Below are positions 44,334 through 62,157 of a DNA stretch of 64,000 bases, in pieces. This DNA is from an uncultured Clostridia bacterium. Lineage in GTDB: Bacteria > Bacillota > Clostridia > Oscillospirales > CAG-272. The position numbers were made by a program, and so were the translations under genes. The DNA lies in contig CANRMP010000013.1 of the NCBI GenBank assembly GCA_947631765.1, positions 141-64,140 of the forward strand. The letters run 5' to 3'. Each line of letters starts with the position of its first letter. The first letter of the stretch is position 1. A model generated the notes under the pieces. The model was not told the origin of the DNA, ran no database searches, and saw only the letters and a program-made list of their open reading frames with translations.

Positions 44334-44650
44334 GGCATATCACCTGTCTTTCGGGAGCCTTCTTCGCCGCCGTTTATGTTGTGATACGCTTCCAAAAGCA
44401 AGCGAACGGACTCCTCCAAGGCACGGTCGATCTCCGCTTCCCGCATCGTTTTTCGCCGGTCTTTCAGCAGTAGTAAGAGCCGATACGCCTCGTAAAAGCT
44501 TTGCGGAGAGGCCGCCCGAACCTCCTTTCCGAGTCCCACTTTCCGCAGATATTCGGAAAGGGAAAGACCGCAATAGCGGGCGGACTTCTCCAACTTTTTC
44601 TTTTCGTTTTCGGTCACACGAAGGTTAATGGCTGTCTTTCTTAATCTCAT
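44324..44650 (-). CDS. mobC: MobC-family relaxosome accessory protein
   Basis: MRLRKTAINLRVTENEKKKLEKSARYCGLSLSEYLRKVGLG is the MobC/RHH pattern. Start moved to ATG 44650. Confidence 0.8.
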   Translation of the reverse strand: MRLRKTAINLRVTENEKKKLEKSARYCGLSLSEYLRKVGLGKEVRAASPQSFYEAYRLLLLLKDRRKTMREAEIDRALEESVRLLLEAYHNINGGEEGSRKTGDMPWQ

Positions 44651-44823
44651 AATCAATACTTCCTTTCTCATTTGGTGGGGTAACAGGGGGCATCCCCCTT
44701 TCGGCATCCTACCGCCGGTTTTGTGGGCAACACAAAGCCTATGCTCGCTGCTCCGTCTTCTTGGCATTACATATATCCATCTTTTTCAAAATGACGGTTG
44801 TGACGGCGGTGACGGCTCTTTCG

Positions 44824-45840
44824 CTATATAGCACTTTTGCCGTCATCGGTGTCATTGCCGTCACTCGTTCTGAACTGCATCAAGCGACTCGCACCCGTCC
44901 GTTTGGTCTTGTACTCAATGCCCGCCGGCGTAAGTACTTCCCCGGCAAATCGCCCGAGCATCTTCGTAACGAGGTTGGGCGGCGTTTCTGTCTCTTTCAT
45001 CTCTGATAGCAGACCAGTCGCCGTTCCCGTCCATACTGACTTGTCCTTTAGGAACTCCACGAGCCGAAAAAGGAACGGTGGGATTTCCTCCCGATGCAGG
45101 GCTGCGCTGTCCTTGTGCTCCACGAGCTGCCAGATGTTATCCTCGAACCGCAGAGTGAACTGCTGATATTCGACGTCCCTGCCGCTGACAAGGAGCGTCG
45201 CCGTGTCCTCGTCCCGCTTGCGTTTCAGAATGATGTTCGTGTCCGCTGCGCCGGTGATCCCGGTGGAACCGGATACCTCGTTGAATGGGTCGCTGGCATC
45301 CTTCATCTTCCGCAGGTGATGCACCAGAACCACGGCGATGCGGCGGCGGTCGGCAATGGATTTTACCGCCGAGATGTCGTCGTAGTCGCTGGCGTACATA
45401 CCGTTTTTTCCTGCGGTGCTCTGGGTGTTGCGTACCTTCTGGAGCGTGTCGATGATGACAAGCCTCGTGTTCGGAAAGTCATTCAGCGCCGCTTCGATCT
45501 GTTCCTCCAAGCCGCAGCCCAGCTTGCCGCAGACGGTCGCAAAGCGCAGACCAGGCGGCGCTTCATCGGTTAGCTTGTAGAGCCGCTCCTGGATCCGCAC
45601 TCGGGTATCCTCCAAGCAAAGATAGAGGACATCGCATTGGTGCGTCGGCAAATCCCATAGGGGTTTGCCCTCTGCTACCCGCAGACCGAGCCACAGCATG
45701 AGCCAGCTTTTTCCGATCTTGCCGGAGCCGCACAGCATACTCACGCCCTGCGGGATCAGGCCGTCCACAATGAACAGCGTCTTTTCCATCGGGGTGGAGA
45801 GCAGCGTATCGGCGTCCACGAGTTGTAATTTTTGAGACAT
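44824..45840 (-). CDS. RecA-fold AAA ATPase (AAA_25/RepA-like, putative element replication helicase)
   Basis: Walker A CGSGKIGKSWL and Walker B LVIIDTLQ. Shows the RepA-like architecture common next to MGE origins. Confidence 0.7.
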   Translation of the reverse strand: MSQKLQLVDADTLLSTPMEKTLFIVDGLIPQGVSMLCGSGKIGKSWLMLWLGLRVAEGKPLWDLPTHQCDVLYLCLEDTRVRIQERLYKLTDEAPPGLRFATVCGKLGCGLEEQIEAALNDFPNTRLVIIDTLQKVRNTQSTAGKNGMYASDYDDISAVKSIADRRRIAVVLVHHLRKMKDASDPFNEVSGSTGITGAADTNIILKRKRDEDTATLLVSGRDVEYQQFTLRFEDNIWQLVEHKDSAALHREEIPPFLFRLVEFLKDKSVWTGTATGLLSEMKETETPPNLVTKMLGRFAGEVLTPAGIEYKTKRTGASRLMQFRTSDGNDTDDGKSAI

Positions 45841-46071
45841 TCAATTCACTTCCTTTCTTCCGTCCTCAGAGAGAACATAGTTGATGACGTTGACCTTCGG
45901 CACACGGAAGGCGTTCCCGATCTTCACGCCGGGGATATATCCGTCTCCGATGAGCCGGTAGGCCAGCGGTCTGCTGATGCCCAGCATCGCTTGCAGCTGG
46001 GCGACGGTCAAGATGTCCGGGTATTCCGGGAACATCAGCTTGTAAAGCTCTTTGAGCTCTGTTTTTTTCAT
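45841..46071 (-). CDS. Excisionase-family (HTH_17/MerR-like) DNA-binding protein
   Basis: ILTVAQLQAMLGISRPLAYRLIGDGYIPGVKIGNAFRVPK. Start at ATG 46071, behind the AAGGAGG RBS. Confidence 0.7.
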   Translation of the reverse strand: MKKTELKELYKLMFPEYPDILTVAQLQAMLGISRPLAYRLIGDGYIPGVKIGNAFRVPKVNVINYVLSEDGRKEVN

Positions 46072-46276
46072 AGCGTTCAACCTCCTTTACTGCTATGTAT
46101 CGGGGCAGCCGCCGTAAGGAGGCGACGCTGACGGCGGCTACCCTTGCCGTTTCACCCGACTGTCGTTTTTATATCCCTGCCCCGGAGTCTCACCGCAGCG
46201 TCGCTGCGCTCGCTTCCTTTCGGAAGGTCGTCGCACGGTCATATCCCAATCGGACGGCTATTCAGTTTTCAAAGGT

Positions 46277-46738: not shown

Positions 46739-46768
46739 TTTTTTAAGTCTACCGGCAGATGTTTTTCT

Positions 46769-46960
46769 GAATTTGGGCAAAAAAATAGAGCGCCCGATGT
46801 TACTCGGAGGCTCTGTCGTTGCACGATTGCGCATAATCGTAAAAAACTTTGAAATATCACAGATTGTCTTGAAAATAGGATGATTTTGTGCTATACTATT
46901 AAATGGATTTGTGTAAGTACGCCCCTGCCGGGAGAAAGGACAAAAAATATGGCAGTATCC
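46769..46960 (+). repeat. Direct repeat copy 1 (about 190 bp), left bracket of the defence cassette
   Basis: Aligns by eye with 63733-63917. The 39-nt core 46821-46859 is identical to 63781-63819. It contains a promoter, an RBS and the first four codons (ATGGCAGTATCC). Confidence 0.8.
46869..46897 (+). promoter_or_regulatory. Sigma-A-type promoter inside the direct repeat
   Basis: TTGAAA (46869-46874), 17-nt spacer ending in TGC, TATACT (46892-46897). The same element is present in copy 2. Confidence 0.55.
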
Positions 46961-47161
46961 TATAAGAAATTATGGCACTTACTTTTGGATCGGGATATGA
47001 AAAAGAAAGATTTGCAACAGGCGGCGGGCTTAACTGCCTATGCGATCAATAAGCTGAGCAGAAACGAAGCGGTTACTACCGATACGCTCGCAAAAATATG
47101 CAGAAGTCTTGATTGTACGGTAGATGACATTATGGAAATTCTGCCGGAAGATATAGAATAA
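46949..47161 (+). CDS. Small XRE-family HTH regulator (70 aa)
   Basis: MAVSYKKLWHLLLDRDMKKKDLQQAAGLTAYAINKLSRNEAVTTDTLAKICRSLDCTVDDIMEILPE is a one-domain HTH_26/XRE type. Start at ATG 46949, behind the GGAGAAAGGA RBS. Confidence 0.75.
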   Translation: MAVSYKKLWHLLLDRDMKKKDLQQAAGLTAYAINKLSRNEAVTTDTLAKICRSLDCTVDDIMEILPEDIE

Positions 47162-47288: not shown

Positions 47289-49811
47289 GTGTTAATAGTG
47301 AGCGATTTAGAAATGAGAAGTCTCATGGCATCAGGTAATAAGCAATCAAAATGGGAAATCCATGAAGACGTTATCCTTCTTGCTGGTTACCTCGAATGGT
47401 TGCAAACAAACCAGCCAAAATCTAAAATTGTTAAGCGCATTTCTGCAGACTTGCGCCAAATGGCGGTAAATCGCGGCATTGAAATAGATAGCATCTACCG
47501 AAATGAGAATGGAATTTCATACCAGATTCAGAGCATGGATTCTGCATACAAAGGCAAAAAGGTGTATGTCCCAGCAACAAGATTATTTAAAGAAACCGTG
47601 GAGTTGTACCGCACAGACACAGAGAGATACTTCAAAATACTTGAGGAGGCCAAAAGCATGATTGCAGCCAAACAGGATAACAAAGATGCTTTCTTAGCAT
47701 GGGCTGAATCTACCTTTTCGGCCAATAGATATAAATGGATAGAGAAAAATATTCTGAAAATGGAGGAACTAGCTATTTCCTCTGCATTAATAACCGGCTC
47801 ACTATTTGAAGTTACGGATTTAGAAACACTGCAAACTATTTATAAAACAGCGGAAAAAAACGTATTTTTCAGAATAAAAAACAGAAAATTTTTCAGGAAA
47901 ATAGTTGATGATTTTAAAATTTATATACAGTATTGTACACGACTGCCGAAAAAAGAAAACCAAGGAGCTGATGTAAAATCCTCTGATATTGTCAACAATG
48001 CAAAAGCGCAAAGCGCTATCGTTCCTTCGAAGGAATCGGGTGTCAAGGCGACATCATCTAATGATTTGATTTCTGAAAATATTTCTAAATCAGCCTCTTG
48101 CGAAGCCGAATTTCTTAACTATTTACAGAATACTGCCAAACTTTCTACTAACACTTGCGCTGCGTATGTTTCCTCCGTTAAAAGTGCAGAACGCTATGCC
48201 ATTGAGCATGGTCTTGCTTCCTGTTCTCTTTTCAATAAGAACGAAGAAACAATTATAGCAACGGCAACAGAATTGTACGGCAAGCCAGATTTCATTAAGT
48301 TTAATGAACAACAACATAATCGTTTTAGCGCTGCGATTAACAAACTACTAGAATCAATAGGCGCTAAAATTCCAGAAAAGGCACTTGTGTCTCGTGGAGG
48401 CAATCACGATCATCAAAGTATTACCTCGCCACAGGTAAATAGTGATATAGTTGCAGTGCTGAAGCAGCACTATGAGTATGGATTCAAATATGATTCTATA
48501 AGGGAGCTTATGCGCTTCCGTCAATTTGCGGATGCGATGAGTATCACGCTCCCGGAAGAAGATGAAATTTTAAAAGCTTCTATCCTGTCATCCGGCACTC
48601 TTATTGACGACAAGGTGTACTACAAAAGTGACGATATGCTGCAGGAACTTCAGCGCATCATTGATGATGTATTTTCTTCCGGTGCAGGCGTTATTTACTA
48701 TGAAAGTCTATTTGAAAACAAGCAGGAATGGATGGAGTCCCATGTGATTACCTCTCCCGATATGCTCAAGGAGTATCTTCAGCATAATATCTCAGGGTAT
48801 TCCTTCTCAAAGAAGTTCATGGTTAAAGGTAACAGATGTTCTGAAAAGGAAGCTGTCACTGATGAGTTAAAAAGAATTTGGGGAACACATCCGGTGGAAA
48901 GCGTATACAAGCTGAATGATTGTCTGCCGTACATCCCGCTAGAAAATATCTGGCGTGTGATATCTGGGAATGACCTTTTTGTATTAGCCTCCGAGGGGGA
49001 ATATTTGTTTATCGACCGTTTCCGTATCACAAAAGACGAGGAAGAAGATATTCTCGACTTTGTGGACGAGACTTGTGAGGAAAATGGTTTTGCTTCGCTT
49101 TGCGATGTTCCTCTGGGCAGTATTGAAGAAGAGAACTACGAGCTTACGCAAGCCACAATATACAATGCAATATATAAAAAAATACTATCCAGCAAATATC
49201 ATCTGAACGGGAAGATCCTTACAAAGGAAAAATCTGAGTTGGATGTCGTAATGCTACTGAAGCAGTACATAAAAAATAAGGACGAATGCACCTTTGATGA
49301 GGTCTCAGATAAGGTGGTAGAATTGACCGGGGGGATAAACCGTCAATATGCATTTCAGGCGCTTTATGATAATATGGTGCGCATAGACAAAAACCATTTT
49401 GTGGCAGATCGGTTTGTAGATTTTTCTATAGACGAAGTTGATACCGTATTAGCTGATTTTGTTACAGATCATTTTCGAGCAATTCGTGATATAACCACCT
49501 TTGCCATGTTTCCTATCTGCGGGCAAAACTGGAACCATTATTTGCTAGAAAGTTTTTGCTATAAATACAGTAGCAAATACAGCCTCCATGTACTTAACTT
49601 CAACGATAAGAATGCCGGGATTATTGCAGAAAGAGATTTTAACAAGAAATATAACGAAATGCTTGCCATTGCCCTTGCAAGAACTGATATAGAACTGCTA
49701 CCGGAAGTTATCGGGGAATACCTGTTCAACATGGGTTATATGGCCAAGCGCAAATATGCCAAGCTGGACGAAATTGCGCAACAAGCTTTGATATTACGGA
49801 AAGAGAGGTGA
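47289..49811 (+). CDS. Large protein of unknown function, first gene of the BREX-like operon
   Basis: 840-aa ORF with no P-loop, methyltransferase or nuclease motif visible. Its stop lies 4 nt before the brxP start. The start is uncertain (GTG 47289, ATG 47313 or ATG 47325). Confidence 0.6.
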   Translation: MLIVSDLEMRSLMASGNKQSKWEIHEDVILLAGYLEWLQTNQPKSKIVKRISADLRQMAVNRGIEIDSIYRNENGISYQIQSMDSAYKGKKVYVPATRLFKETVELYRTDTERYFKILEEAKSMIAAKQDNKDAFLAWAESTFSANRYKWIEKNILKMEELAISSALITGSLFEVTDLETLQTIYKTAEKNVFFRIKNRKFFRKIVDDFKIYIQYCTRLPKKENQGADVKSSDIVNNAKAQSAIVPSKESGVKATSSNDLISENISKSASCEAEFLNYLQNTAKLSTNTCAAYVSSVKSAERYAIEHGLASCSLFNKNEETIIATATELYGKPDFIKFNEQQHNRFSAAINKLLESIGAKIPEKALVSRGGNHDHQSITSPQVNSDIVAVLKQHYEYGFKYDSIRELMRFRQFADAMSITLPEEDEILKASILSSGTLIDDKVYYKSDDMLQELQRIIDDVFSSGAGVIYYESLFENKQEWMESHVITSPDMLKEYLQHNISGYSFSKKFMVKGNRCSEKEAVTDELKRIWGTHPVESVYKLNDCLPYIPLENIWRVISGNDLFVLASEGEYLFIDRFRITKDEEEDILDFVDETCEENGFASLCDVPLGSIEEENYELTQATIYNAIYKKILSSKYHLNGKILTKEKSELDVVMLLKQYIKNKDECTFDEVSDKVVELTGGINRQYAFQALYDNMVRIDKNHFVADRFVDFSIDEVDTVLADFVTDHFRAIRDITTFAMFPICGQNWNHYLLESFCYKYSSKYSLHVLNFNDKNAGIIAERDFNKKYNEMLAIALARTDIELLPEVIGEYLFNMGYMAKRKYAKLDEIAQQALILRKER

Positions 49812-49815
49812 CTGT

Positions 49816-52113
49816 ATGTATTCCTATACTTTTGATTCGAGAACAGGCGGAATCATACTAAATTCAACTCCTACAAATTTTTCCAAAGAACCAAGGCCTG
49901 TTTACGCTGCGGAGTTGGAAATTCTTGGCTTTGATAAATACTGGGATTACGACAAACAGAACGACATGCCCTATATGTGGGCAGAGTCTAATCTTTACTG
50001 GTATAGGGGCGTGCAGATAGCCAAGACAAAAGGCGGTGACCTTTATACAGCTCCGGAACTTCAACCAACCAGAGATGAAAACGGTCGGATACCCTTTAGC
50101 AAGTTTGACGGTTCAACGTTGGAACATATGGACATAGAAGCTATGTGTGCCGCCAATGAAGATTTGCTTACCGTTATAGAGGATTCCACTGTAAAGAAAA
50201 TTGTTAAGGAGTATGAAAAGTTTAAAGGCAAATTGGATATCTTTCATGTGGCTTTCTCGGGTGGTAAAGATAGTGCAGTGCTGTTGGATCTTGTAAAGAA
50301 GGCACTGCCCAAAGGTAGCTTCGTTGTGATTTTCGGAGATACTGGCATGGAGTTTCCAGATACTTATGAGGCAGTAGAGAAAACAAAAAAGCAATGCGAA
50401 GCGGATGGTACTCCCTTCTATATTGCCCGTTCGCATTTTGAACCTAAAGAATCATGGGAGCTTTTCGGCCCACCGTCATGCACGTTAAGATGGTGCTGCA
50501 GTGTGCATAAAAGCACACCACAAACGCTGAAAATGAGAGAGATAACCGGAAAAGAAAATTACACCGGACTGGATTTTGTTGGAGTGAGAAAACACGAGAG
50601 CCTTGCTCGGAGCACTTATGAATATGAGAATTACGGCAAAAAGCAAAAGGGACAACATAGCTTTAATCCTTTGCTGGAGTGGACTTCGGCTGAAATATGG
50701 CTCTATATGTATGCACGCAATTTAGTTGTCAACAAGGCTTACATAAAGGGTAATTCTCGTGCTGGATGCCTCTTATGCCCTATGTCGGGCGGATATAGTG
50801 ATTTTATTCGTAGATATAACTATACAGAGAACATCGACTCATTTATCGATATTATCAAACGGAAGAATAACTGGGATAGCTATAGTGAAGCTGAACTCCA
50901 TTCTTATGTAACATCTGGTGGGTGGGATAATCGAAGAAGCGGCAGAGGAATAGCGGGGAATGTTCTAAAGTACAAAGAAAAGGCCTCTGAAGGCGAAATA
51001 ACCATAGAGATAATAAATCCAAATTCAAATTGGAAAGAATGGATTAAGACGGCCGATACCACAACTATACCAATAAAGATAAAAGAAAACTCAAATGGTG
51101 CCACTTTTGTTTTATTAGAGAAAGATGTAAAAGCGCATCCGACCGCCGGAAAGATTATTAGGCAGTCTCTTAAAAAAGCAGCTTATTGTGTAGGATGTCG
51201 AGTTTGTGAAACTAACTGCAAGGGTGGACACATACATTTTGAAAACGGAAAGGTAGCAATTACAGATTGCATACAATGTCACGAATGTCACGATATACCC
51301 GCAGGATGCCACGCATACAATTCGTTGAAAATTCCACAAGGAGAAAAAAAGATGAAGACAATAAACTGTTTCGATGACCACGCCCCGAAAAGGGATTGGC
51401 TTGTATCATTCTTTGATTTGCAAGATGAGTTTTTTACGGAGCACACTCTGGGTCCTAATATGTTCACGCATTTCAAGCGGTTTCTTCGTGACGCTCACCT
51501 CATAGATGGTAACAAGTGCACGGATTTTTCTGCATTAATTTGTGATTTGGGATGGGAGAGCGATACTGCGCTTGCATTAATGCTTGTAAATCTCTCTTAT
51601 GAAAATGCCCAATTCGAATGGTACATCAATCAAATGGATATTGGCTATTTTTATGAGAACAAATTATTAAAAGAGAGATTGATGGCTGACGACATAAAAG
51701 AAAAAGCCGCTAATTCGATTGTAAAGTCTTTCAAACGTATAGTTAGCACCCCGTTCGGAACTGTTTTGAACTTTGGATATGTAACTGATGACGATGATAT
51801 GGTACGTACTAAGTGCTCCATCAGTGATAATCGAGTTGTACTTTATGCACTTTATAAATTTGCCGAAAAGTGTAACCTAGATAAAGAATTTCATGTTTCT
51901 TATCTCTACAACGATACTATTGAACGTGACGGCGTCAGTCCCGTGCGCATCTTTGGCTTGTATGATGAAGAGGAATTCAAATCCATTCTCTTGGGGCTTT
52001 CCTCTGTATACCCGGAATTTATCAATGCAACATTCACCAACGATCTGCAAACCATCACTCTACGTGATAAGACAAGCGACGATGTGCTGAACCTGTTTAA
52101 GGAGGAAATATAA
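49816..52113 (+). CDS. brxP: BrxP-like PAPS-reductase/DndC-like PP-loop ATP pyrophosphatase with a Cys-rich (Fe-S-like) insert and a C-terminal extension
   Basis: PP-loop FSGGKDS (50257-50274), RWCCSVHK, GVRKHES and RAGCLLCP. Cys cluster CVGCRVCETNC..CIQCHEC..GC at 51187-51309. The last roughly 265 aa are unassigned. Confidence 0.8.
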   Translation: MYSYTFDSRTGGIILNSTPTNFSKEPRPVYAAELEILGFDKYWDYDKQNDMPYMWAESNLYWYRGVQIAKTKGGDLYTAPELQPTRDENGRIPFSKFDGSTLEHMDIEAMCAANEDLLTVIEDSTVKKIVKEYEKFKGKLDIFHVAFSGGKDSAVLLDLVKKALPKGSFVVIFGDTGMEFPDTYEAVEKTKKQCEADGTPFYIARSHFEPKESWELFGPPSCTLRWCCSVHKSTPQTLKMREITGKENYTGLDFVGVRKHESLARSTYEYENYGKKQKGQHSFNPLLEWTSAEIWLYMYARNLVVNKAYIKGNSRAGCLLCPMSGGYSDFIRRYNYTENIDSFIDIIKRKNNWDSYSEAELHSYVTSGGWDNRRSGRGIAGNVLKYKEKASEGEITIEIINPNSNWKEWIKTADTTTIPIKIKENSNGATFVLLEKDVKAHPTAGKIIRQSLKKAAYCVGCRVCETNCKGGHIHFENGKVAITDCIQCHECHDIPAGCHAYNSLKIPQGEKKMKTINCFDDHAPKRDWLVSFFDLQDEFFTEHTLGPNMFTHFKRFLRDAHLIDGNKCTDFSALICDLGWESDTALALMLVNLSYENAQFEWYINQMDIGYFYENKLLKERLMADDIKEKAANSIVKSFKRIVSTPFGTVLNFGYVTDDDDMVRTKCSISDNRVVLYALYKFAEKCNLDKEFHVSYLYNDTIERDGVSPVRIFGLYDEEEFKSILLGLSSVYPEFINATFTNDLQTITLRDKTSDDVLNLFKEEI

Positions 52114-52114
52114 G

Positions 52115-55100
52115 ATGTCGGTACAAAATCTGAAATATTGTGAATATTTTGATGTTGATGAAAAGTATTTTCCTTGTATTGACGAGTCCGCCATCAACAG
52201 CGGTGCGGCTTGGGATACTACTTACCCGCATCAGACCTTCATAGATCTGCTCACTCTGTCAGAAAAAATGCTAAGTGGCAGCACAAATCGTTCCATCTGG
52301 ATTCACGGTGCATATGGAACCGGTAAATCTCAGTGTGCTTATACGCTCAAAAAGTTATTGGAAGTGCCAGAAAATGAAGTTAGAGCATATTGGGACAAGT
52401 TTGAACCGCTAAAAAAGAATCCCGTTCTGCTGGAAAAACTTATCGGGCATAAAGCACAGGGCATAGTGACGGCCTACCGATATGCTTCCGGGAGCATTAC
52501 GACACCACAGCAACTTTTCTTTGCCGTGCAGGAAAGCATTAAAAAAGCATTAGATTCAAATGATGTTTCCTACAAGGGCGAAAACTCTCTAAAGGAAAGC
52601 GTTATTTCTTGGCTGCAAGACCCTATTCACAATCAATTTATGAACGCTTTGCTTCAGAAGTCAAAGTGGATGTCCACCTTTTCCCAGTCCTCTGCCGATG
52701 AGATCATAAACACATTGAAAAAAGGCAGCGACGTTTCATCTCTGATGGACAGTATTTTTAGCCTTGCCGCAGAAGAGGGTATTACAGCTCTTGATCTCTC
52801 CGCAGATTTTCTGCGTGACTGGATTGTGGATATTATCGATAAAAATAATATTAAACTCGTCCTTATCTGGGATGAATTCAGCGACTACTTCCGTCAAAAC
52901 AGTACATCTCTCGGCGAGTTTCAGAAAATCGTTTCCATCTGCCAAGAGAAACCTTTCTACTTCGTTATTGTTACGCATCCCCTATCCTCTCTTGCAAAAA
53001 AATTTGACAGCGGAGATAAGACCAATCCATGGTCTGTTGTGCAACAACGTTTTGATAAAGTGGAAATCACTTTACCAGACAACATTGCTTTTGACCTTAT
53101 CGGCCATGCGTTTAATGTAAAGCCCGCAGCAAAAGCAAGCTGGGTGCAGATGACTGGAGATTTGAATGCTTATGTGGCAAATGCTTGCAATGCCGTCATC
53201 AAAGTGGCAAATATTAGCGGCGAAAATGTGATGCGGGATATTTTGCCGATTCATCCAATTGCGGCACTCGTTCTAAAAAATATTGCCTCTGCTTTCCAGT
53301 CCAATCAGCGTAGCATGTTCGACTTTATCAAAACACCGAAAGATATGGATGTCAAGGCATTCCAGTGGTTTATCCAGAATACTAGCCCACTTTCCGACCG
53401 ACCCTATCTGACCGTAGATATGTTGTGGGACTTCTTTTATGAGAAGGGCAAAGATTACCTTTCTCCAGACATCAAGCTTATTTTGGACACCTTTCCTCAG
53501 CAAACGCAACTAAATGATAAAGAAAAAATCGTCCTGAAGACTATTTTGATTATGCAGTCTATTGACCAGAGGCTAGGCGGTACCCTGCCGATTCTAAAGC
53601 CTACTGATCAAAATCTCAGCTATGCGTTTGAAGGCGATGCCGGCGAACTAGAATCCTCCTGCAAGAGCATCGCAAAAGCTCTGGTAAAAAAGGGTATCTT
53701 GATTGAAAATCCGATTGCAGACGGCAAAAAAGTGTATTCCGCTGCTGTCCTTGCAGGTGATAGCGCCAAAATTGAGGCATTCAAAAAGGATATCCGTGAA
53801 AAGCAAGGCTCAACCACTAAGCTTGTCTCGGAAGGAGCTGCTGTCGCAACGGCACTTAGCCTTCCTCCTGCGCTGAAGCTTCGCTATGCGCTGGATCTGG
53901 AAAGCGGCAAACTGCCAGTTGTGACTATGTCCGATTTCAAGAAAGCTATGGATGCTTTGAAGAACAAAGATGCGGACTGGCACTTTTATGCCGTGCTTGC
54001 GTTAGCAAAGACCGACGAAGAAGCACAAAACTTCCGCACCCTGATAAAGAAAACCATCGCAGAGCCTGAATATAAAAATATTGCTATTATCGATGCTTTG
54101 TCCACACCTTTGGGATTAGAAGCTTTTGAGCAGTATGTAGATTACTCCGCTATGTCAATGTATTACAATGGCAACAACGGACAGCAATCAAAAGAAAATG
54201 CAAAAAAAGCAAAAGATGTGCTGGAGCGTGATTGGAAGGAACGTATTCACGACGGACAGTTCATAGTCTTTACCTATGCAAATCAGGACGGCGAAAAAGC
54301 AACCGGCGCTAGTGCTGTTCATACTATCATGCAAACGATTGTCCTGAATCGATTCAAGCATGTACAAGACTTTACAAAAGGCCTTTCTGAAACTCAGTTG
54401 AAGCTCACTACTCCAAAGCCCGTTGCAAAATATGGTATGGGTGGAATGGAAATCAAAGGACTGATTGCCGGATGTGAAAAGTCCGTTCTGGGTAAATTCT
54501 GGAACAAGAAAGAATATTGGAAAGATGAGTCTCTCTCAGACGAGCATATTGTCATTATAAAAAAGTCTGTTGACAAAATGATTAACGATGCTTTTAAGAG
54601 TAGTGGAAAGATTTCAATAGGTGAAATTTACGATCATTTAGAAACCACCTTCGGATTTTCCACCTGTAACCTTTCTGCATTCATTACTGGTTTTTTGCTA
54701 AAAGAATACAGCGCAGAGCCATATCGTTCCATGGATGCGGAAGGGCACAGGGATTCCATGACTCCAGACAAGCTGTCTGAGATGATTGGAAACTATATTG
54801 GTAAGAGTCCGAAATCCACCTATATTGTCAGCTTGACCGAAGAGGAAAAGGCGTTCTATGAACTCACGGAAAGCGCATGGAATATTACCGCCAACACATG
54901 CTCCTCGCCCCAGCAGGCAGGCACACTCGTTCTTTCGAAAATGAGAGACCTGTCATATCCTGTTTGGTGTCTGGAAGACGTGGACACCACGGGGGTATTT
55001 GACCTTGTTAAACTTTATATCAAGCTCGTGCAGAGTAAAGGCGATGATGCACACGATGTGGCCAATGAAATCGGTAAAATTGCAATTCAACGACCCTCAT

Positions 55101-56287
55101 CTGCGCATAATCTAAAGACACTGCTTACTCTTGAAAACTGCAAGAAGGGTATGCATATATTCCTTGAACGTTTTGAGGGCGGTAAACTGTTGAATGTTGC
55201 CAAAGAAATCGGTGCAGATGATTTCGTCATGACGGATATTAAAAAACTATTTAGCGTTCAGTATTCTGCCCTTTGGATTGGATCGACTGGAGAGGATGAA
55301 ATCCGCAAGCTCATCACTGAATATGAAGTTGTGAAATCTACAAACATTCTTCTGAATGTTACTGCTCATTCCAAGGATGCTGCATTTAAGGAATGGAGAG
55401 AAACATTGAAGTTTATCGGATTCTCCTGTGAATCAGTCAAGACCAAAAAACCTGCACTTGATAAGTTTTTCTACAGTTTACTGCGCATTGCAAACTACGA
55501 GGATATGCTCCCAGAGCATATAAAATTATTCCTTGAAGAGATGACCAATCATATGTCTGATATTCGGGGAATACTTAATAATCCTCTATTAGTCTTTATG
55601 GATATATATGCTCCCTATCTTGAAGGCTTTACTGAGGCAGAATGTGAGGAGATCAAAAATTCCATTACATCTGAGATGTTTACTGTCTCCTCCACAGCAA
55701 GCAATGCCGCCGTGAAAAAAGCTGCAGAAGACTATAAAAAAAGTCAGGTGAAGTCGCAGCTTTATAAACTTTGGAATGACAAGACAGGAGATAGTAAAAA
55801 TCCTCGCTCTTGGTCTGAAAAATACCGCACGCCCATCCTGTGCTGTATAAAAGATACTCAGTATAGTGCCGCAAGGAAAGTGTTTGCCACACTTAACAGT
55901 AGCACACAAAGCGAAGCGGATATCAAGGAGGCTTTGGAATTTCTTCAGAAAGCTGACTTCTTTGATGACATCGCTTCCGCTGATTATCGTGATGAGTGCT
56001 TTGCTAATCATATTATTGGTGATTACACAAGCCTAATTTCAGATATAAATGCGGTAAGGGATGCACTGGAAAGCACCGGGATTAGCGCCTATGAATGGAG
56101 TGACAACCCTTATATCAGAAGCAAGGTTGATAGTCTGGCAAATGCGGAATATAATGCAGGCGGCAGTGATAAGGTTGTCGACATCATTGAGGGCATGGCT
56201 GATGCAGAACTAAAGAAATGGTTGACCGACATTGTCAGGAAGGATATGGGCCTTGGCATCAAGATCATTATTAATAAGGAGGAGTAA
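52115..56287 (+). CDS. brxC: BrxC/PglY-like large P-loop ATPase
   Basis: 1390 aa. Walker A HGAYGTGKSQ near the N-terminus and Walker B LVLIWDEFSDY. Its size and its position between brxP and pglZ match BREX type 4. Confidence 0.7.
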   Translation: MSVQNLKYCEYFDVDEKYFPCIDESAINSGAAWDTTYPHQTFIDLLTLSEKMLSGSTNRSIWIHGAYGTGKSQCAYTLKKLLEVPENEVRAYWDKFEPLKKNPVLLEKLIGHKAQGIVTAYRYASGSITTPQQLFFAVQESIKKALDSNDVSYKGENSLKESVISWLQDPIHNQFMNALLQKSKWMSTFSQSSADEIINTLKKGSDVSSLMDSIFSLAAEEGITALDLSADFLRDWIVDIIDKNNIKLVLIWDEFSDYFRQNSTSLGEFQKIVSICQEKPFYFVIVTHPLSSLAKKFDSGDKTNPWSVVQQRFDKVEITLPDNIAFDLIGHAFNVKPAAKASWVQMTGDLNAYVANACNAVIKVANISGENVMRDILPIHPIAALVLKNIASAFQSNQRSMFDFIKTPKDMDVKAFQWFIQNTSPLSDRPYLTVDMLWDFFYEKGKDYLSPDIKLILDTFPQQTQLNDKEKIVLKTILIMQSIDQRLGGTLPILKPTDQNLSYAFEGDAGELESSCKSIAKALVKKGILIENPIADGKKVYSAAVLAGDSAKIEAFKKDIREKQGSTTKLVSEGAAVATALSLPPALKLRYALDLESGKLPVVTMSDFKKAMDALKNKDADWHFYAVLALAKTDEEAQNFRTLIKKTIAEPEYKNIAIIDALSTPLGLEAFEQYVDYSAMSMYYNGNNGQQSKENAKKAKDVLERDWKERIHDGQFIVFTYANQDGEKATGASAVHTIMQTIVLNRFKHVQDFTKGLSETQLKLTTPKPVAKYGMGGMEIKGLIAGCEKSVLGKFWNKKEYWKDESLSDEHIVIIKKSVDKMINDAFKSSGKISIGEIYDHLETTFGFSTCNLSAFITGFLLKEYSAEPYRSMDAEGHRDSMTPDKLSEMIGNYIGKSPKSTYIVSLTEEEKAFYELTESAWNITANTCSSPQQAGTLVLSKMRDLSYPVWCLEDVDTTGVFDLVKLYIKLVQSKGDDAHDVANEIGKIAIQRPSSAHNLKTLLTLENCKKGMHIFLERFEGGKLLNVAKEIGADDFVMTDIKKLFSVQYSALWIGSTGEDEIRKLITEYEVVKSTNILLNVTAHSKDAAFKEWRETLKFIGFSCESVKTKKPALDKFFYSLLRIANYEDMLPEHIKLFLEEMTNHMSDIRGILNNPLLVFMDIYAPYLEGFTEAECEEIKNSITSEMFTVSSTASNAAVKKAAEDYKKSQVKSQLYKLWNDKTGDSKNPRSWSEKYRTPILCCIKDTQYSAARKVFATLNSSTQSEADIKEALEFLQKADFFDDIASADYRDECFANHIIGDYTSLISDINAVRDALESTGISAYEWSDNPYIRSKVDSLANAEYNAGGSDKVVDIIEGMADAELKKWLTDIVRKDMGLGIKIIINKEE

Positions 56288-56290
56288 GAT

Positions 56291-58567
56291 ATGCTTTGCC
56301 AAGAAGTGCAAAACTACATATCAACTGCAAAAGGATTGCCTTTTTTCTATGTAGTTGGTGATGAAGACTACTCTTCTGTATTGGATGAATTGAAACAAAT
56401 GGATATCTCCATTGTGAGAATGAGTGATTTCTGTTCCAATGATGATAAATTTCCTAGCGTAGATGAACTGGTGGATTATTTTCAAACTTCCGATGTGGAT
56501 TATCGAAACAACAAATTTGTTGTGGTCGGTCTTGGGGAATATCTTGCGCTCAGGGGATCTGCCATTGCAGAGAAGGAACTACGTAGGTTAAAGAATACCA
56601 CCCTTGGAAATGCAAGAGCCATTCTTCTGCTAAGGGGGATTTCTATTCAGGCCACAAAAATCATCCGTGATGATAACAAGATAGTGAACCAGCAGAGAGC
56701 ATATATCTCCGTCAATTCTCTCACGAACATATCAATTACGAATGTACCGGAAGATGTTGGACTTGTTGCAAATGATGGTGTAAAACATTTGCTTCGATTA
56801 CTGGAAGACGGTGCTTGCGGAAATGTATATGCTAATACCGCACTGGTTCTTGATAACACGCTCTTTCCGATATCTAACCTCTCCGGAGCGCATTCTGTGG
56901 TAAAGCTACTTGTTAAGAACTTTACACTCGATAGTGATCTCGGTACAAAAGAACAGTGGCAACGGCTTCTGAAAGACCTAAATAAATTCGGAAAAGACAT
57001 CAAGACCGTATTTGATAAGAACGGCATTGACGAAAGAATCGTTGACGATTTGTGCTTAGCAGTTACCGGTCTTGAGTATCGAAACTGGCTGGTTTTCCTG
57101 TTTTTCAAATTAAATGCCAACCAGATACAAAACGCTTACCTGAAATTTGTGGTTGATGAAACTTTGAATTTTCAAGATTTCAAAACCAATCTTATGGTAA
57201 AAATTACGGAGCTATCCCATAAAGACCAGCGTTTTAGGCGGTTATATGATGAGAGAAAAAAGCTGCTAAAAGATTTTCCGGAAGAGGATGTTGCCATCTT
57301 CGTGAAGGCAAATGAAATTGACCCGGCAGAGAGCATCTATCGCCTGACTGATAATACACTATTGGAAAAGAAGACTGCAGTTAAGTGGGTGGCACGGAAC
57401 GGCTTTAGTGATGCCATATCCTATGTGTATCCCGCTCTTGATGCATACCTGAAGAAATATATATTTGACTGCCCTGTACTTGCAAGTGAATTGACGGAAT
57501 ACTTTGATTCTTATAAGCAACAAAAGGTTTCAAATCATATTTCAGATGACTTTGTAAAGCTCGTTGAGAAGTATGCATCTGGCATTTCTTATGCACAGCT
57601 ACCCACAAGGGACAATGCAATCAAGGCCATTGCAGACAAGAACAGTGCTTACCTGTATTGGATTGATGCATTAGGTGTAGAATACCTGTCGTATATTACT
57701 GCCCTTGCGAGGAAAAAGGGGCTGTCAATGCATATAGATATTGTTCGCTCCGATTTGCCGACAATCACATCGATAAATAAGCAGTTCTATGAACAATGGA
57801 CGGGTGGAAGGAAATATAAGGAAGAAGAACTAGATAACATTAAACATAAGGACAAGGGTGGGTATTTCTTTACAGAAGACGAAGATCCTATCCACATTCC
57901 AGCAGAGCTTGAGGTAATAGAAAGGGCCCTAAATACTGCTGCGATGGAGCTTGGCATGCATAACTGTAAATCGTTTGTTATCGCAAGCGATCACGGTGCT
58001 TCCAGATTGGCTGTCATAAAGAAGCAGGAAGTGCCGTATGAAACTGACACCAAGGGTGAACACTCTGGACGTTGCTGTAAGGCTTTTGAGGGATGCGATG
58101 TTCCTTATAAGGTTGAGGATAACGGCTTTATCATTCTTACCGATTATGGCAGATTTCGTGGCAGCCGCACAGCCAATGTAGAAGTACACGGAGGAGCCAG
58201 CCTTGAGGAAATTGTTGTGCCTGTAATTACGCTGACACTAAAAAAGCAGGCAAGTATTCAGATTACAGTTATGCATCCTGACGATATTACCGCAGATCGT
58301 CATGATGGTGTTACGCTGAACTTGTACATTTCAGATGTGGAGTCACCGGACAATATCAGTATTGTGATCGAGGATAAGCCTTATAAAGGTAAATCGGAAG
58401 ATGGATTGCATTACACCTTTGAACTTAAAGATATTAAGCGAGCAAAGACAAAACCGTACACAGCCGATGTCTTTGACGGGATTGATTTAATCGGTAGCGT
58501 TTCCTTCACGGTGAGGGGCAAAACCGCTACAGTTAAAGATGATTTTGATTTTGGCGATGAATTTTAA
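56291..58567 (+). CDS. pglZ: PglZ-domain protein (alkaline-phosphatase superfamily)
   Basis: YWIDALGVEYLSY, DLPTITSINK, IASDHGASR and VHGGASLEEIVVPVI are the conserved PglZ motifs. Confidence 0.8.
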   Translation: MLCQEVQNYISTAKGLPFFYVVGDEDYSSVLDELKQMDISIVRMSDFCSNDDKFPSVDELVDYFQTSDVDYRNNKFVVVGLGEYLALRGSAIAEKELRRLKNTTLGNARAILLLRGISIQATKIIRDDNKIVNQQRAYISVNSLTNISITNVPEDVGLVANDGVKHLLRLLEDGACGNVYANTALVLDNTLFPISNLSGAHSVVKLLVKNFTLDSDLGTKEQWQRLLKDLNKFGKDIKTVFDKNGIDERIVDDLCLAVTGLEYRNWLVFLFFKLNANQIQNAYLKFVVDETLNFQDFKTNLMVKITELSHKDQRFRRLYDERKKLLKDFPEEDVAIFVKANEIDPAESIYRLTDNTLLEKKTAVKWVARNGFSDAISYVYPALDAYLKKYIFDCPVLASELTEYFDSYKQQKVSNHISDDFVKLVEKYASGISYAQLPTRDNAIKAIADKNSAYLYWIDALGVEYLSYITALARKKGLSMHIDIVRSDLPTITSINKQFYEQWTGGRKYKEEELDNIKHKDKGGYFFTEDEDPIHIPAELEVIERALNTAAMELGMHNCKSFVIASDHGASRLAVIKKQEVPYETDTKGEHSGRCCKAFEGCDVPYKVEDNGFIILTDYGRFRGSRTANVEVHGGASLEEIVVPVITLTLKKQASIQITVMHPDDITADRHDGVTLNLYISDVESPDNISIVIEDKPYKGKSEDGLHYTFELKDIKRAKTKPYTADVFDGIDLIGSVSFTVRGKTATVKDDFDFGDEF

Positions 58568-58578
58568 GGAGGAGAACT

Positions 58579-60075
58579 ATGGAACTTTCCGAAAAGCTAA
58601 GAGATAATTTTGACGAGATGGTCGTCTATAAAGATTTGAAGAAAACCAACTTCTTCTCCACGTTGAGTCTCCCCGCCTTTATGCGCGACTGGCTGCTGAA
58701 AAAGTTTGAGGACGACGAGGGCGAATTTGATAAAGACGATCTTGCTAGATTTGTCAAAAAATTTATTCCTAGAAAAGATGACTGGAATGCGATAAAAAAT
58801 GACATCGTTATTGAAGGTAAAACAGTAAAATTTCTTGCCAAGGTATCTGTGAATATTGACATCAAAACCGGTGAGGTATCTTTTGCTCTGCCCGACTTCG
58901 GCTTGGGATTTAAAGAAACTATCATTGAAAGCGATGTGTGGGATTCATGCAAAGATGACCTTGTAAAAGGCCGAGATATATGGGGAATGGTAGAGCTTGG
59001 ATATCGTTCGCCAGACGATTTTGATTTTACCTTTGAGTATGAAAAAAAATCATCTAAAGCCAAAAATTCTAAAGATGGAAAAATCAAGCTTGTTTCCTTC
59101 AAGAATTTCTGTCCTTATGAGATTGATCTTGAGGACTACAAAGAGGCCCGCAAAGAATTTACTACAAGCGAATGGATTGACGTTATCCTTGGAGCTGTTG
59201 ACTATAATGCCGCCGGATACAAAACTGAAGAAGAAAAGCTCACAATGCTTACCAGACTGCTTCCGTTTGTTGAAAAGCGCCTAAATCTCATCGAGCTTGC
59301 TCCAAAGGGTACTGGAAAATCTTATCTTTTTGGAAATGTTAGCCGATATGGTTGGCTTTCTAGTGGCGGTGTTATGAGCCGAGCCAAGATGTTCTATGAC
59401 CAGACAAAGCGCCGAGAGGGATTGATTTCTGGGAGTGATTTCGTTACACTGGACGAAGTACAGACAATTTCCTTTACAGATACTGACGAAATGCGGGCTG
59501 CTTTGAAAGGCTATTTGGAACAGGGTACATTTACTGTAGGCGACTATAAAGGAACTGCAGATGCTGGCATGGTACTTTGCGGGAATATCCGCAAAGAAAT
59601 CATGGATGCAGACGGTTATGAAAATATGTTCACTGAGTTACCGCCTGTTTTCCATGAGTCAGCGTTAATTGAAAGATTTCACGGATTCATTAAAGGATGG
59701 AATATTCCTCGCATGAAAGACGATTTGAAGATAGATGGATGGGCTTTGAATTCAGAATACTTCTGTTCAATCATGCACGAACTTCGCAGCGACATGACAT
59801 ATAGAAGCATTGTGGACGAATTTATTGTTGTGCCTGAAGGAGCCGACACACGTGATACTGAAGCTGTAAAGCGAATTGCTACGGCATACCTAAAGCTTCT
59901 TTTCCCAAATGTTCAGCATGTAGAAGATATAACACCAAGAGAATTTAAGAAATATTGCTTTGATCGTGCTCGCAGAATGAGAGATACGATTAAATATCAG
60001 CTTGGCTTACTTGATGTAGAGTATGCCGGAAAGGATTTGCCGCCATTTAAAATTTATGGCATAGATGCTGAGTGA
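58579..60075 (+). CDS. brxL: BrxL-like ATPase, short form without the Lon-protease domain
   Basis: The N-terminus L..F..VVYKDL..LPAFMRDWLLKKF..G parallels the BrxL N-domain. Walker A APKGTGKSYLF and Walker B DFVTLDEVQ. The protein ends at 498 aa. Confidence 0.75.
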   Translation: MELSEKLRDNFDEMVVYKDLKKTNFFSTLSLPAFMRDWLLKKFEDDEGEFDKDDLARFVKKFIPRKDDWNAIKNDIVIEGKTVKFLAKVSVNIDIKTGEVSFALPDFGLGFKETIIESDVWDSCKDDLVKGRDIWGMVELGYRSPDDFDFTFEYEKKSSKAKNSKDGKIKLVSFKNFCPYEIDLEDYKEARKEFTTSEWIDVILGAVDYNAAGYKTEEEKLTMLTRLLPFVEKRLNLIELAPKGTGKSYLFGNVSRYGWLSSGGVMSRAKMFYDQTKRREGLISGSDFVTLDEVQTISFTDTDEMRAALKGYLEQGTFTVGDYKGTADAGMVLCGNIRKEIMDADGYENMFTELPPVFHESALIERFHGFIKGWNIPRMKDDLKIDGWALNSEYFCSIMHELRSDMTYRSIVDEFIVVPEGADTRDTEAVKRIATAYLKLLFPNVQHVEDITPREFKKYCFDRARRMRDTIKYQLGLLDVEYAGKDLPPFKIYGIDAE

Positions 60076-60076
60076 C

Positions 60077-60277
60077 ATGGAAACGAAAAAATGTTATGTC
60101 TGCGGTAAAATTCCGCTTTCTAAGGATGAGATAGGTCTTACTAAAAAGATAATCAATAAGGACGCAACGGCTTTTTATTGCTTACCTTGTCTGGCAGAAT
60201 ACCTTGAAGTTACCGAAGAAGAACTGATTGCCAAAATCGAGGAGTTCAAGGAAGAAGGCTGCACACTGTTTAAGTGA
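60077..60277 (+). CDS. Small Cys4 zinc-ribbon protein
   Basis: CYVCG..(about 32 aa)..CLPC, followed by an acidic helix. The alternative start at ATG 60065 overlaps the brxL stop. No family recognised. Confidence 0.5.
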   Translation: METKKCYVCGKIPLSKDEIGLTKKIINKDATAFYCLPCLAEYLEVTEEELIAKIEEFKEEGCTLFK

Positions 60278-60286
60278 GGAATAGCT

Positions 60287-61414
60287 ATGAAGCAGTTTAT
60301 TTATGCCGACAATGCGGCAACTACAAAATTGGATATTGATGCATTCGAGGCAATGAAACCGTTCTTGCTTGATGAGTACGGTAATGCATCGCAGCCCTAT
60401 TCTTTTGCTCGTCAACCTAAGAAAGCGCTAAGTAATGCACGAACAATTATTGCGGAATGTATAAATGCTTCGCCGAAAGAAATCTATTTTACTTCCGGTG
60501 GTACAGAAAGCGATAATTGGGCGATTAAAGGAATATCACTAAACGGAACTGTCGCTCCAATAATTACTTCGCAAATTGAACATCACGCCATTCTCAATTC
60601 CTGCAAAACAGTTGAAACGATGGGTATTCCTGTGACCTATTTGGGTGTTACAAAGCAGGGTGTTGTTGATCCGGCTGTGCTGAAAAATGCGATTGCAAAT
60701 TCAACAAAGCTTGTCTCTGTAATGTATGCGAACAATGAGATTGGGAGCGTTCAACCAATAAAAGAGCTCTGTGAAATTGCTCATAATCATGGCGCTTTAT
60801 TTCATACAGATGCTGTACAAGCCGTCGGTCATATTCGTATAGATGTTAAAGAACTGGGTGTTGATTTGCTATCTGCTTCTGCTCACAAATTTAACGGGCC
60901 TAAGGGAGTCGGTTTTTTATACATAAAAAACGGAACTCCGATTCAACCTTATGCAAACGGCGGTTCTCAAGAGTCATCGTTGCGAGCCGGAACGGAAAAT
61001 ATAGCAGCCATTGTTGGAATGGCAGTGGCTCTGAAGAAAAACTGTGAACAACTTGATCAGACACATAATCATCTTACTGGTCTGGAATACGAGTTGCTTC
61101 GTCTTCTTAGGCAGCACAGTATTCCGTTTATCCGTAATGGATCGGAAAATCACATTGCAGGAAATCTTAGCCTATCTTTTCCCAACAAAGACGGAGAGGC
61201 TATCATGCACATATTAGATCTGCACGGGATATGCGTTTCAACCGGTGCCGCTTGTGACAGTGTAAATACAGAAATATCGCACGTTTTAAAAGCTATAGGT
61301 TTGCAAGATAACTATGCCAAGGGCACAATTCGAATTTCACTCGGGAAAAATAATACAGAAAAAGATGTACGGCTAATAGCGGATTCTCTTAAGCAAATAG
61401 AATCCAAACTATAG
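60287..61414 (+). CDS. Cysteine desulfurase (class V aminotransferase, NifS/IscS/DndA-like)
   Basis: TSGGTESDN, the PLP-lysine motif SASAHKFNGPKGVG, and the active-site loop STGAACDS. Confidence 0.85.
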   Translation: MKQFIYADNAATTKLDIDAFEAMKPFLLDEYGNASQPYSFARQPKKALSNARTIIAECINASPKEIYFTSGGTESDNWAIKGISLNGTVAPIITSQIEHHAILNSCKTVETMGIPVTYLGVTKQGVVDPAVLKNAIANSTKLVSVMYANNEIGSVQPIKELCEIAHNHGALFHTDAVQAVGHIRIDVKELGVDLLSASAHKFNGPKGVGFLYIKNGTPIQPYANGGSQESSLRAGTENIAAIVGMAVALKKNCEQLDQTHNHLTGLEYELLRLLRQHSIPFIRNGSENHIAGNLSLSFPNKDGEAIMHILDLHGICVSTGAACDSVNTEISHVLKAIGLQDNYAKGTIRISLGKNNTEKDVRLIADSLKQIESKL

Positions 61415-61445
61415 TGTTCCATAATACAAAGCCACCTCTGCGCTA

Positions 61446-61503: not shown

Positions 61504-61543
61504 GCCGTCTGAAAGGATATTTCGAAAAAATGGGCATCGCATT

Positions 61544-61580
61544 TTAGTCAAGTACGATTTGCCGAATCGTACTTGACTAA
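61544..61580. terminator. Perfect 16-bp hairpin, probable terminator of the operon
   Basis: TTAGTCAAGTACGATT, loop TGCCG, AATCGTACTTGACTAA, followed by a T-rich run. Confidence 0.55.
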
Positions 61581-61759
61581 ATTTTAAATTTCGGCAAGTG
61601 CGTGTTCTTTTGTACTTGATAAGACTATATGACCTCCGTTACAAAATTCGAAAACCGTGATTAAATTCCTACACGCAAATCTCATAAATCGCATGTTAAA
61701 TAGTACATTCTCTGTTATACATAGCGGCGGCAGAGATTTTTCCCTGCCGCCGCCCGGAT

Positions 61760-62134: not shown

Positions 62135-62157
62135 AACGCAAACCTCCTTTGCACTAT

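Follow-up and report, generated by a model that had tools for sequence, protein, structure and literature searches.

What does a bacteriophage exclusion (BREX) operon without a methyltransferase do to the DNA of its host, and what do the genes beyond its known core add? This question is raised by a seven-gene operon in a 64,000-nucleotide stretch of contig CANRMP010000013.1, from an uncultured Clostridia bacterium; the whole stretch is called the window here. We consider it likely that the operon is an intact BREX type 4 system of a long form, a defence operon that distinguishes self from non-self DNA by a phosphorothioate (PT) mark. In this reading it is the low-GC cargo of an integrative mobilizable element (IME) at a tRNA-Ser gene, and its first gene encodes a scaffold or adaptor. 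This first gene, with a product of 840 amino acids (aa), is given the working name X840.

The seven open reading frames (ORFs) occupy positions 47289-61414 of the plus strand and encode 840, 765, 1390, 758, 498, 70 and 375 aa. The junctions between them are 4, 1, 3, 11 and 9 nucleotides (nt) long, and the zinc-ribbon gene starts either at ATG 60065, with an 11-nt overlap with brxL, or at ATG 60077, after a 1-nt gap. An initial annotation of this DNA had described the same layout, and it agrees exactly with the ORF list, the alternative zinc-ribbon start included. All the motifs it quoted for BrxP, BrxC, PglZ and BrxL were found, and its assignment to BREX type 4 is borne out by PADLOC for the four core proteins (1e-222 for BrxL; the others are in the table). 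In terms of methyltransferases, the motif [ND]PP[YFW] occurs in 0/6 large proteins of the operon, and no methyltransferase family of Pfam, PADLOC or NCBIfam matches any of the seven proteins, as that annotation had supposed from the motif.

The chemistry of related systems has been published. A combination of liquid chromatography with tandem mass spectrometry (LC-MS/MS), PT-seq and genetics revealed that BREX type 4 makes PT DNA (Yuan et al., Nat Commun 2026; bioRxiv 2024; PMC12914056). For marking, brxP, brxC and a desulfurase of the host form the minimal set, and neither brxZ nor brxL is required. In effect, BrxP is a fusion of SspD and SspB, BrxC is a homologue of SspC, and the PT motifs of Brx systems are diverse (PMC12914056). 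The earlier remark that the mechanism had not been worked out experimentally is outdated, since BrxP and BrxC with a cysteine desulfurase make PT DNA (PMC12914056). The proposal of a non-methyl mark was right, and by analogy with these systems the mark would be phosphorothioate. For the window, the PT chemistry and the need for BrxP and BrxC are carried over from related published systems; the protein identities, intact catalytic motifs, architecture and synteny are observed.

As for the individual proteins, BrxP matches Pfam PAPS_reduct PF01507 (1.8e-29, aa 145-322), one of the profiles suggested beforehand. It carries SGGKDS at 148, RWCC at 225 and GCLLCP at 317, followed at 458-498 by eight invariant cysteines in agreement with 2x[4Fe-4S] ferredoxins. 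BrxC has Walker A at 65 (GAYGTGKSQ) and Walker B at 251 (IWDEF), with weaker SspC matches besides its own model. PglZ contains YWIDALGVEY at 456, SDHGASR at 566 and HGGASLEE at 633, and its metal-site motifs are invariant in the PglZ alignment. BrxL has GTGKSY at 244 and LDEVQ at 291, and passes the TIGR02688 cut-off of 329.3 bits, also as anticipated. The profiles proposed for the other two core proteins were less suitable. At the threshold used for all window proteins (E<=0.01), PglZ has no match to Pfam PF08665, and BrxC has no Pfam match at all, DUF499 and DUF6079 included, but NCBIfam and PADLOC assign both proteins. Their identities depend on those models (the NF033445 cut-off is 140 bits) and are solid.

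The last gene, 9 nt downstream of the zinc-ribbon gene, encodes a cysteine desulfurase with both the SxHK pyridoxal phosphate motif and the GAAC active-site cysteine. Its NifS score (437 bits) is below the equivalog cut-off of that family. In two distant long-form loci, L099 (18678-18878) and L103 (18927-19127), the zinc-ribbon gene is found between pglZ and brxL and not between brxL and the desulfurase gene, so the mini-protein is not simply an appendage of the desulfurase gene.

Taken as a pathway, the dedicated desulfurase, probably with its zinc-ribbon partner, would draw sulfur from cysteine. BrxP (PP-loop, Fe-S cluster and DNA-binding C-terminus) and the BrxC ATPase would then, as in the published systems, place this sulfur in the backbone of DNA, at short motifs. 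Exclusion of unmarked DNA would fall to PglZ and BrxL as presumed effectors, both dispensable for marking, and the upstream gene of the Cro/C1 helix-turn-helix (HTH) type is a likely regulator of the operon. X840 may be a non-catalytic scaffold or adaptor, co-translated with BrxP, that attaches this writer to DNA or to the other Brx proteins. A dedicated desulfurase and zinc-ribbon protein may also free the cassette from sulfur-transfer enzymes of the host, which would be useful to mobile cargo. The roles of X840, the zinc-ribbon protein, PglZ, BrxL and the HTH gene in this scheme are those that we infer.

We observed a strict linkage of X840 to brxP. Scanning one genome per species with the X840 alignment gave 80 loci, and five metagenome contigs bring this to 85. 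The genes brxP-brxC-pglZ-brxL follow immediately on the same strand in 81/85 of these loci (81/81 assessable), the remaining four stopping at a contig edge. The bacterial loci come from Bacillota, Synergistota, Desulfobacterota, Spirochaetota, Bacteroidota, Planctomycetota, Nitrospirota, Chloroflexota, Verrucomicrobiota and Cloacimonadota, and others are found in metagenome-assembled genomes of the methanogens Methanoregula and Methanospirillum. In 83/89 loci brxP starts -1 to +5 nt from the stop codon of X840, which points to translational coupling.

The reverse direction, anchored on PglZ and BrxP in IMG/VR, gave 15 unique assessable loci. The BrxP-anchored scan returned 80 loci, mostly phage genes that are PAPS-reductase-like and not BrxP, and only L095-L104 were used. 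X840 is directly upstream of brxP in 13/15, including distant systems with BrxP at 29-32% identity. Together, these 13 independently anchored loci and the 81 anchored on X840 make 94 assessable long-form loci, and X840 directly precedes brxP in all of them (94/94). About 95 independent loci keep this gene order, far more than chance could explain.

The two reverse-anchored loci that lack X840 are L101 and L094. The first is a bona fide four-gene BREX-4 system by PADLOC, with a BrxC of 1177 aa (PDLC02472) and the PglZ version PDLC02542. The second is on plasmid pNP174 of Methanosphaera sp. ISO3-F5, with a pair of HTH and ImmA/IrrE genes upstream and a DUF262 gene downstream. Both have the other version of BrxC (~1180 aa) and of PglZ (~800 aa). 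In assessable loci with X840, the zinc-ribbon gene is present in 9/9 and the desulfurase gene in 8/9; in L094 and L101 it is 0/2 for each. Because X840, the zinc-ribbon gene and the desulfurase gene co-occur and are all lacking in these two loci, BREX-4 appears, in this small reverse sample, to have a short four-gene and a long seven-gene form, the window being of the long form. As for plasmids, a megablast of the operon against PLSDB gave no match, and a tblastn search with PglZ gave the distant Methanosphaera plasmid BREX-4 only.

This neighbourhood comparison, which had been proposed as a check, changes how the additional genes are seen. The initial annotation treated them as three non-canonical genes that extend the locus. 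They are present as described, but by synteny X840, the zinc-ribbon gene and the desulfurase gene are conserved long-form architecture across phyla, not a local extension of the window locus. In addition, the desulfurase and the zinc-finger protein were already published (PMC12839542), which leaves X840 as the one unaccounted for in the literature searched.

X840 is a large family with little resemblance to known ones. No PADLOC or NCBIfam model matches the window protein, Pfam gives nothing beyond a weak match of the integrase N-terminal SAM-like kind (aa 274-308), and a PDB sequence search found no relative. We found 1,901 representatives of 50%-identity clusters at E<=1e-3, ranging from 426 to 1724 aa around a conserved core, the C-terminal ~460 aa. 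Homologues start at M9 or M13 (832 or 828 aa), so the true start in the window is probably 47313 or 47325.

An AlphaFold2 model built on an alignment of 36 sequences has a mean predicted local distance difference test (pLDDT) score of 85.7. It starts with a helical N-terminal domain (aa 16-210), a disordered linker and a helical module resembling integrase core-binding domains (253-348). A tandem array of about six winged-helix domains (373-775) comes next, and three helices end the protein. The predicted structure has no catalytic fold. Foldseek against the PDB returns solely tandem winged-helix arrays: UFL1/DDRGK1 (E 1.7e-4), SelB WH1-4, ESCRT-II, Dcc1 and Rpc5. A separate model of the last 195 residues (pLDDT 94.7, predicted template modelling score 0.89) has generic winged-helix matches, the best at E 0.049, and the fold search with it found no nuclease, ScoMcrA-type sulfur-binding domain, rhodanese or TusA-like match. 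Conservation in the family is highest in the sixth winged-helix domain, at its recognition helix and wing. The conserved residues are F733, P734, C736, G737, W740, N741, L745, E746, S747, C749, N764, N767 and G769. In terms of charge, the winged-helix array is acidic (isoelectric point, pI, 4.6-4.9), with a basic N-terminal domain (pI 9.4) and C-terminal tail (pI 9.1).

Several identities were tried for X840 and rejected. A split-off DUF4007, BrxA or SspB finds no support: there is no Pfam DUF4007 match and no PDB sequence match, hhalign against BrxP gives a probability of 0.7%, and SspB (6LB9) is not among the top Foldseek matches. As for a nuclease or other enzyme, neither X840 of the window nor 17 long homologues show a catalytic fold or an enzymatic Pfam domain, and the N-terminal extensions of the homologues have HTH-type or integrase-SAM-like signals only. 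A PD-(D/E)xK reading of the conserved C-terminal motif fits neither the residue spacing nor the fold.

The second unusual feature of the operon is found inside BrxP. BrxC, PglZ and BrxL of the window are 85-97% identical to those of close relatives. Identity falls steeply in two segments, ~400 aa at the N-terminus of X840 (37-70%) and aa ~300-660 of BrxP (38-67%). The latter is an internal cassette spanning an alpha+beta domain and part of the DNA-binding region, with 38-67% identity against 85-100% for the flanking BrxP segments, BrxC, PglZ and BrxL. The clearest pair is L008 and L009, with X840 97-100%, BrxC 94-100%, the BrxP ends 93-100% and the cassette only 38-50% identical, the rest of the operon being at 93-100%. 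By this identity profile, the difference is a recombinational cassette swap. The swap does not depend on X840: with the same cassette, the window and L008 have different X840 N-termini. We regard the cassette as the best candidate for a module that sets specificity or is exposed to counter-defence.

From these observations we put forward a tentative reading of the new parts, which we hold as plausible and no further. X840 would be an obligatory subunit of the major, long form of BREX-4, in which a BrxC of 1390 aa goes together with a dedicated desulfurase and a zinc-ribbon protein. It would serve as a multi-winged-helix scaffold without enzymatic activity, produced in a constant ratio to BrxP, that couples the PT writer to DNA or to PglZ and BrxL. 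The BrxP cassette would be an exchangeable module for the PT motif.

A different assignment makes X840 itself the specificity subunit of the PT writer, its winged-helix array reading the motif thiolated by BrxP and BrxC. The many HTH-type modules and the translational coupling to BrxP fit this role, as do the rapid divergence of X840, the fastest of the operon (27-35% identity where BrxL has ~75% and BrxP ~57%), and an N-terminal half that is variable among close relatives in a class with diverse PT motifs (PMC12914056). We nevertheless find it unlikely. The sixth recognition helix and wing are the most conserved part, opposite to what a variable reader should show, and the array is acidic. 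Any switch between L008 and L009 maps to BrxP, as they share X840 and differ in the cassette, and four-gene BREX-4 systems write PT without X840.

X840 could also act on the defence side, as a sensor or adaptor for invading DNA or phage proteins, with its swappable N-terminal modules as sensors, or as a recruiter or loader of the MCM-like BrxL ring and PglZ. Variable, modular N-termini, as the family has across the 426-1724 aa range, are typical of defence sensor modules, and replication-factor adaptors with winged-helix arrays (Dcc1, Cdt1, Stn1) are among the structural matches. This, too, seems improbable to us: the gene is coupled to brxP, not to pglZ or brxL, and it co-occurs with the sulfur-supply genes. 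To our knowledge, BREX type 1 uses BrxL without any X840-like protein.

A transcriptional regulator or anti-toxicity governor of the operon, similar to BrxR, is very unlikely. X840 is the first gene and rich in HTH modules, and BrxR is among its weak fold matches (rank 32), but the proteins are 500-1700 aa long without a WYL or other ligand domain, and a separate Cro/C1 regulator is already upstream here and in 16 relatives. The translational coupling to an enzyme gene suggests instead a stoichiometric subunit. A persulfide relay from desulfurase to BrxP, or a PT reader like the sulfur-binding domain of ScoMcrA, has a smaller chance still. X840 does co-occur with the desulfurase, and its top motif, FPxCGxxWNxxLLESxC, offers two near-invariant cysteines and a hydrophobic cluster of proline and aromatic residues. 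Neither cysteine is invariant, however, some family members having Ser, Pro, Leu or Val there, and the C-terminal model matches no fold of either kind, only generic winged helices. Finally, that the three genes are unrelated neighbours or mobile-element hitchhikers of a system made of brxPCZL alone is scarcely credible: the four-gene definition that Goldfarb is said to have given in 2015 and the short loci L094 and L101 speak for it, but the synteny contradicts it, with gene order and tight junctions kept across phyla and archaea while the flanking genes vary between loci.

Some points weigh against the reading of the operon as a PT-based defence system on an IME with X840 as scaffold. The window operon and all systems containing X840 are known from sequence alone, and the anti-phage activity of such type 4 systems "awaits investigation" (PMC12914056). 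In the Bacteroides salyersiae operon, brxP and brxC by themselves make PT, and no X840-like gene is reported there (PMC12914056), so X840 is not generally needed for PT chemistry. Direct DNA binding by X840 is unproven, given that its winged-helix array is acidic and that the structures it matches best, at weak scores (TM about 0.1-0.3), are winged-helix arrays that bind proteins. Anchoring on PglZ and BrxP gave small samples (the 15 unique loci), drawn from IMG/VR with search patterns that derive from this clade. Lastly, a search of the window for attR, a second copy of the 3' end of tRNA-Ser, gave no match, and the right end of the element, not located there, probably lies beyond base 64000.

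The coordinates of the operon, its signals and the surrounding element are collected in the table.

Table. Features of the BREX type 4 operon and of its carrier element (positions in the window)
Feature	Position	Strand	Evidence
tRNA-Ser(CGA), left junction of element	38413..38501	+	ARAGORN
Tyrosine integrase	38592..39824	-	Pfam Phage_integrase 3.3e-27
Mobilisation/maintenance module: ParB-like, MobA/VirD2 relaxase, NikA-like, AAA_25 ATPase, HTH_17 excisionase-like	42034..46080	-	Pfam; GC 54-56%
Promoter-like site, TTGAAA + 17 nt + TG-TATACT, upstream of regulator gene	46869..46897	+	10/12 matches, extended -10; consensus match only
Cro/C1-type HTH regulator (HTH_26)	46880..47161	+	Pfam HTH_26 9e-19
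X840, predicted multi-winged-helix protein, first operon gene	47289..49811	+	predicted structure; synteny
BrxP, PP-loop PAPS-reductase-type, predicted sulfur-inserting enzyme, C-terminal DNA-binding region	49816..52113	+	PADLOC PDLC02510 4.3e-243, aa 1-761
Hypervariable internal BrxP cassette, aa ~300-660	50713..51795	+	identity comparison among close relatives
BrxC, P-loop ATPase, SspC-like, long 1390-aa version	52115..56287	+	PADLOC PDLC02485 E=0, 1636 bits, aa 7-1386
PglZ, BREX-4 type, alkaline-phosphatase-fold presumed effector	56291..58567	+	NCBIfam NF033445 541.3 bits; PADLOC PDLC02554 6.9e-192; Pfam DUF7864/7863/7862
BrxL, short form: N-terminal domain and MCM-like AAA+ ATPase, without Lon-like C-terminal domain	58579..60075	+	TIGR02688 403.7 bits; Pfam BrxL_N, BrxL_ATPase
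Cys4 zinc-ribbon mini-protein, 66-70 aa, conserved C-terminal helix, GCxLF tail	60065..60277	+	CxxC...CxxC kept in 11 orthologues
Cysteine desulfurase, class V aminotransferase fold, DndA/SspA/NifS class	60287..61414	+	PADLOC SspA and DndA both 1.1e-128; Pfam Aminotran_5 3.8e-80
Terminator-like hairpin, 18-bp stem, closes operon	61543..61581	+	hairpin sequence

The likely true start of the HTH regulator gene is ATG 46949, preceded by the ribosome-binding site GGAGAAAGG, and a Cro/C1 HTH homologue is directly upstream of the X840 gene in 16 related loci. The BREX block has a G+C content (GC) of 40-43%, with 41% for the cassette. The mobilisation genes next to it reach 54-56%, and the remainder of the window is at ~46%. 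A segment of ~200 bp at 46764-46960 is repeated at 63728-63917, 16.96 kb apart and with 90-94% identity. It contains the promoter-like TTGAAA/TATACT, the 5' untranslated region, the ribosome-binding site and the first five codons (MAVS-). Its two copies bracket a 17-kb cargo of BREX, TnpV and AAA_14, and the second heads a different gene that runs off the window. The repeat looks like a shared promoter of cargo modules or a recombination scar of cassette insertion. A 75-nt direct repeat (61429-61503 and 62140-62214, 83% identity) flanks the TnpV gene (61760-62341, minus strand), just past the BREX terminator.

An AAA_14/DUF4143 ATPase gene adjoins the BREX cassette, in the window downstream and on the opposite strand (62199-63551, minus). 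In the closest relatives, L001-L005, such a gene is immediately upstream of the cassette on the same strand (~8.6-9.9 kb, plus). The window protein and those of the relatives are too divergent for tblastn at 1e-5. The association of this gene with the BREX cassette may be recurrent.

As for the carrier, the initial annotation proposed that the operon is cargo of a mobile genetic element, and the tRNA-Ser, integrase, relaxase and mobilisation genes agree with this, with the right end probably outside the window. The class of IME follows from the tyrosine integrase beside a tRNA gene, the relaxase and the accessory mobilisation genes, and the gene content supports the BREX operon being cargo of such an element. 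Left of 38.4 kb there are ordinary chromosomal genes. The excisionase-like gene is followed by a field of iteron-like repeats, the BREX cassette, TnpV and the AAA_14/DUF4143 ATPase. In this field (~46250-46700), between the excisionase-like gene and the promoter of the BREX regulator, at least 4 imperfect direct repeats share the core CTCACTTGTTCCGACTGGGAGAGG and follow one another at intervals of about 115-130 bp. The CTCACTTGTTCCGACTGGGAGAGG field looks like iterons or protein-binding sites of the element (an oriT, replication or partition site). An IS110-family transposase gene (40074-41309) is inserted between the integrase and the ParB-like/relaxase module. Furthermore, the 5' half of tRNA-Ser(CGA), to the anticodon loop and with 6 nt upstream, has an exact duplicate 183 bp upstream of the intact gene (38224-38270 vs 38407-38453, 47 nt), which may be a remnant of earlier integration or excision at this tRNA.

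Four systems that mark DNA with PT are now established; BREX type 4 is one of them, enriched in gut bacteria. The picture of it in PADLOC, in NCBIfam and in the two papers of 2026 has four to six components. The analysis adds to it a seventh conserved gene of the long form, without a family model, ahead of brxP, and a recombining BrxP cassette. Both are concrete genetic handles on PT marking and exclusion. If the cassette does set the PT motif, natural allele pairs like L008 and L009 would make PT specificity directly testable.

What is new has to be set against recent descriptions. In a survey of 457 type 4 taxa, 56% had a DndA-like desulfurase, which is partnered by a small zinc-finger protein (Rakesh and Krishnan, NAR 2026, PMC12839542). 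The alpha+beta and 4Fe-4S-like regions of BrxP, the short BrxL and the two BrxC versions are described there as well (PMC12839542). In its main text and the supplements searched, there is neither a large multi-winged-helix component upstream of brxP nor any mention of a swappable BrxP cassette. We did not find X840 described in the text of the literature searched; it may have been depicted before in figures or neighbourhood tables. The residual novelty, X840 as a conserved multi-winged-helix first gene without a family model and the swappable BrxP cassette, appears undescribed; otherwise the window system is an ordinary intact member of a published system.

Among known systems, brxPCZL of B. 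salyersiae and other gut isolates (PMC12914056) resembles the window in having BrxP, BrxC, PglZ and BrxL in one operon without a methyltransferase. It differs in using the housekeeping desulfurase SufS and in carrying mcrA and another unknown gene downstream of brxL, with no reported X840-like first gene, zinc-ribbon gene or dedicated desulfurase; the window system, for its part, is known from its genes only. The type 4 class of Rakesh and Krishnan (PMC12839542) shares with the window a desulfurase adjoining the core genes and a small zinc-finger protein beside it.

SspABCD-SspE has in common with the window a cysteine desulfurase, the PAPS-reductase-type SspD and the DUF499/DUF6079-type ATPase SspC, as well as a PT self mark, which for the window is predicted. 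The PADLOC scores set them apart, with SspD at 3.4e-10 and SspC at 3.1e-20 against 4.3e-243 for BrxP and E=0 for BrxC. PADLOC finds no standalone SspB, SspE or SspFGH among the window proteins, which have PglZ and BrxL instead. With DndABCDE-DndFGH the window shares a DndA-like desulfurase, a DndC-like PP-loop enzyme and, presumably, the exchange of sulfur for oxygen in the backbone. The similarity to DndC is weak (1.1e-6, PADLOC), and PADLOC finds no homologue of DndB, DndD, DndE or DndFGH in the operon. Lastly, BREX type 1 (brxABCXZL) has the same BrxC, PglZ and BrxL modules and likewise separates marking from exclusion, but it relies on N6-adenine methylation by PglX, standalone BrxA and BrxB, and a BrxL with a Lon-like or HKD C-terminal domain.

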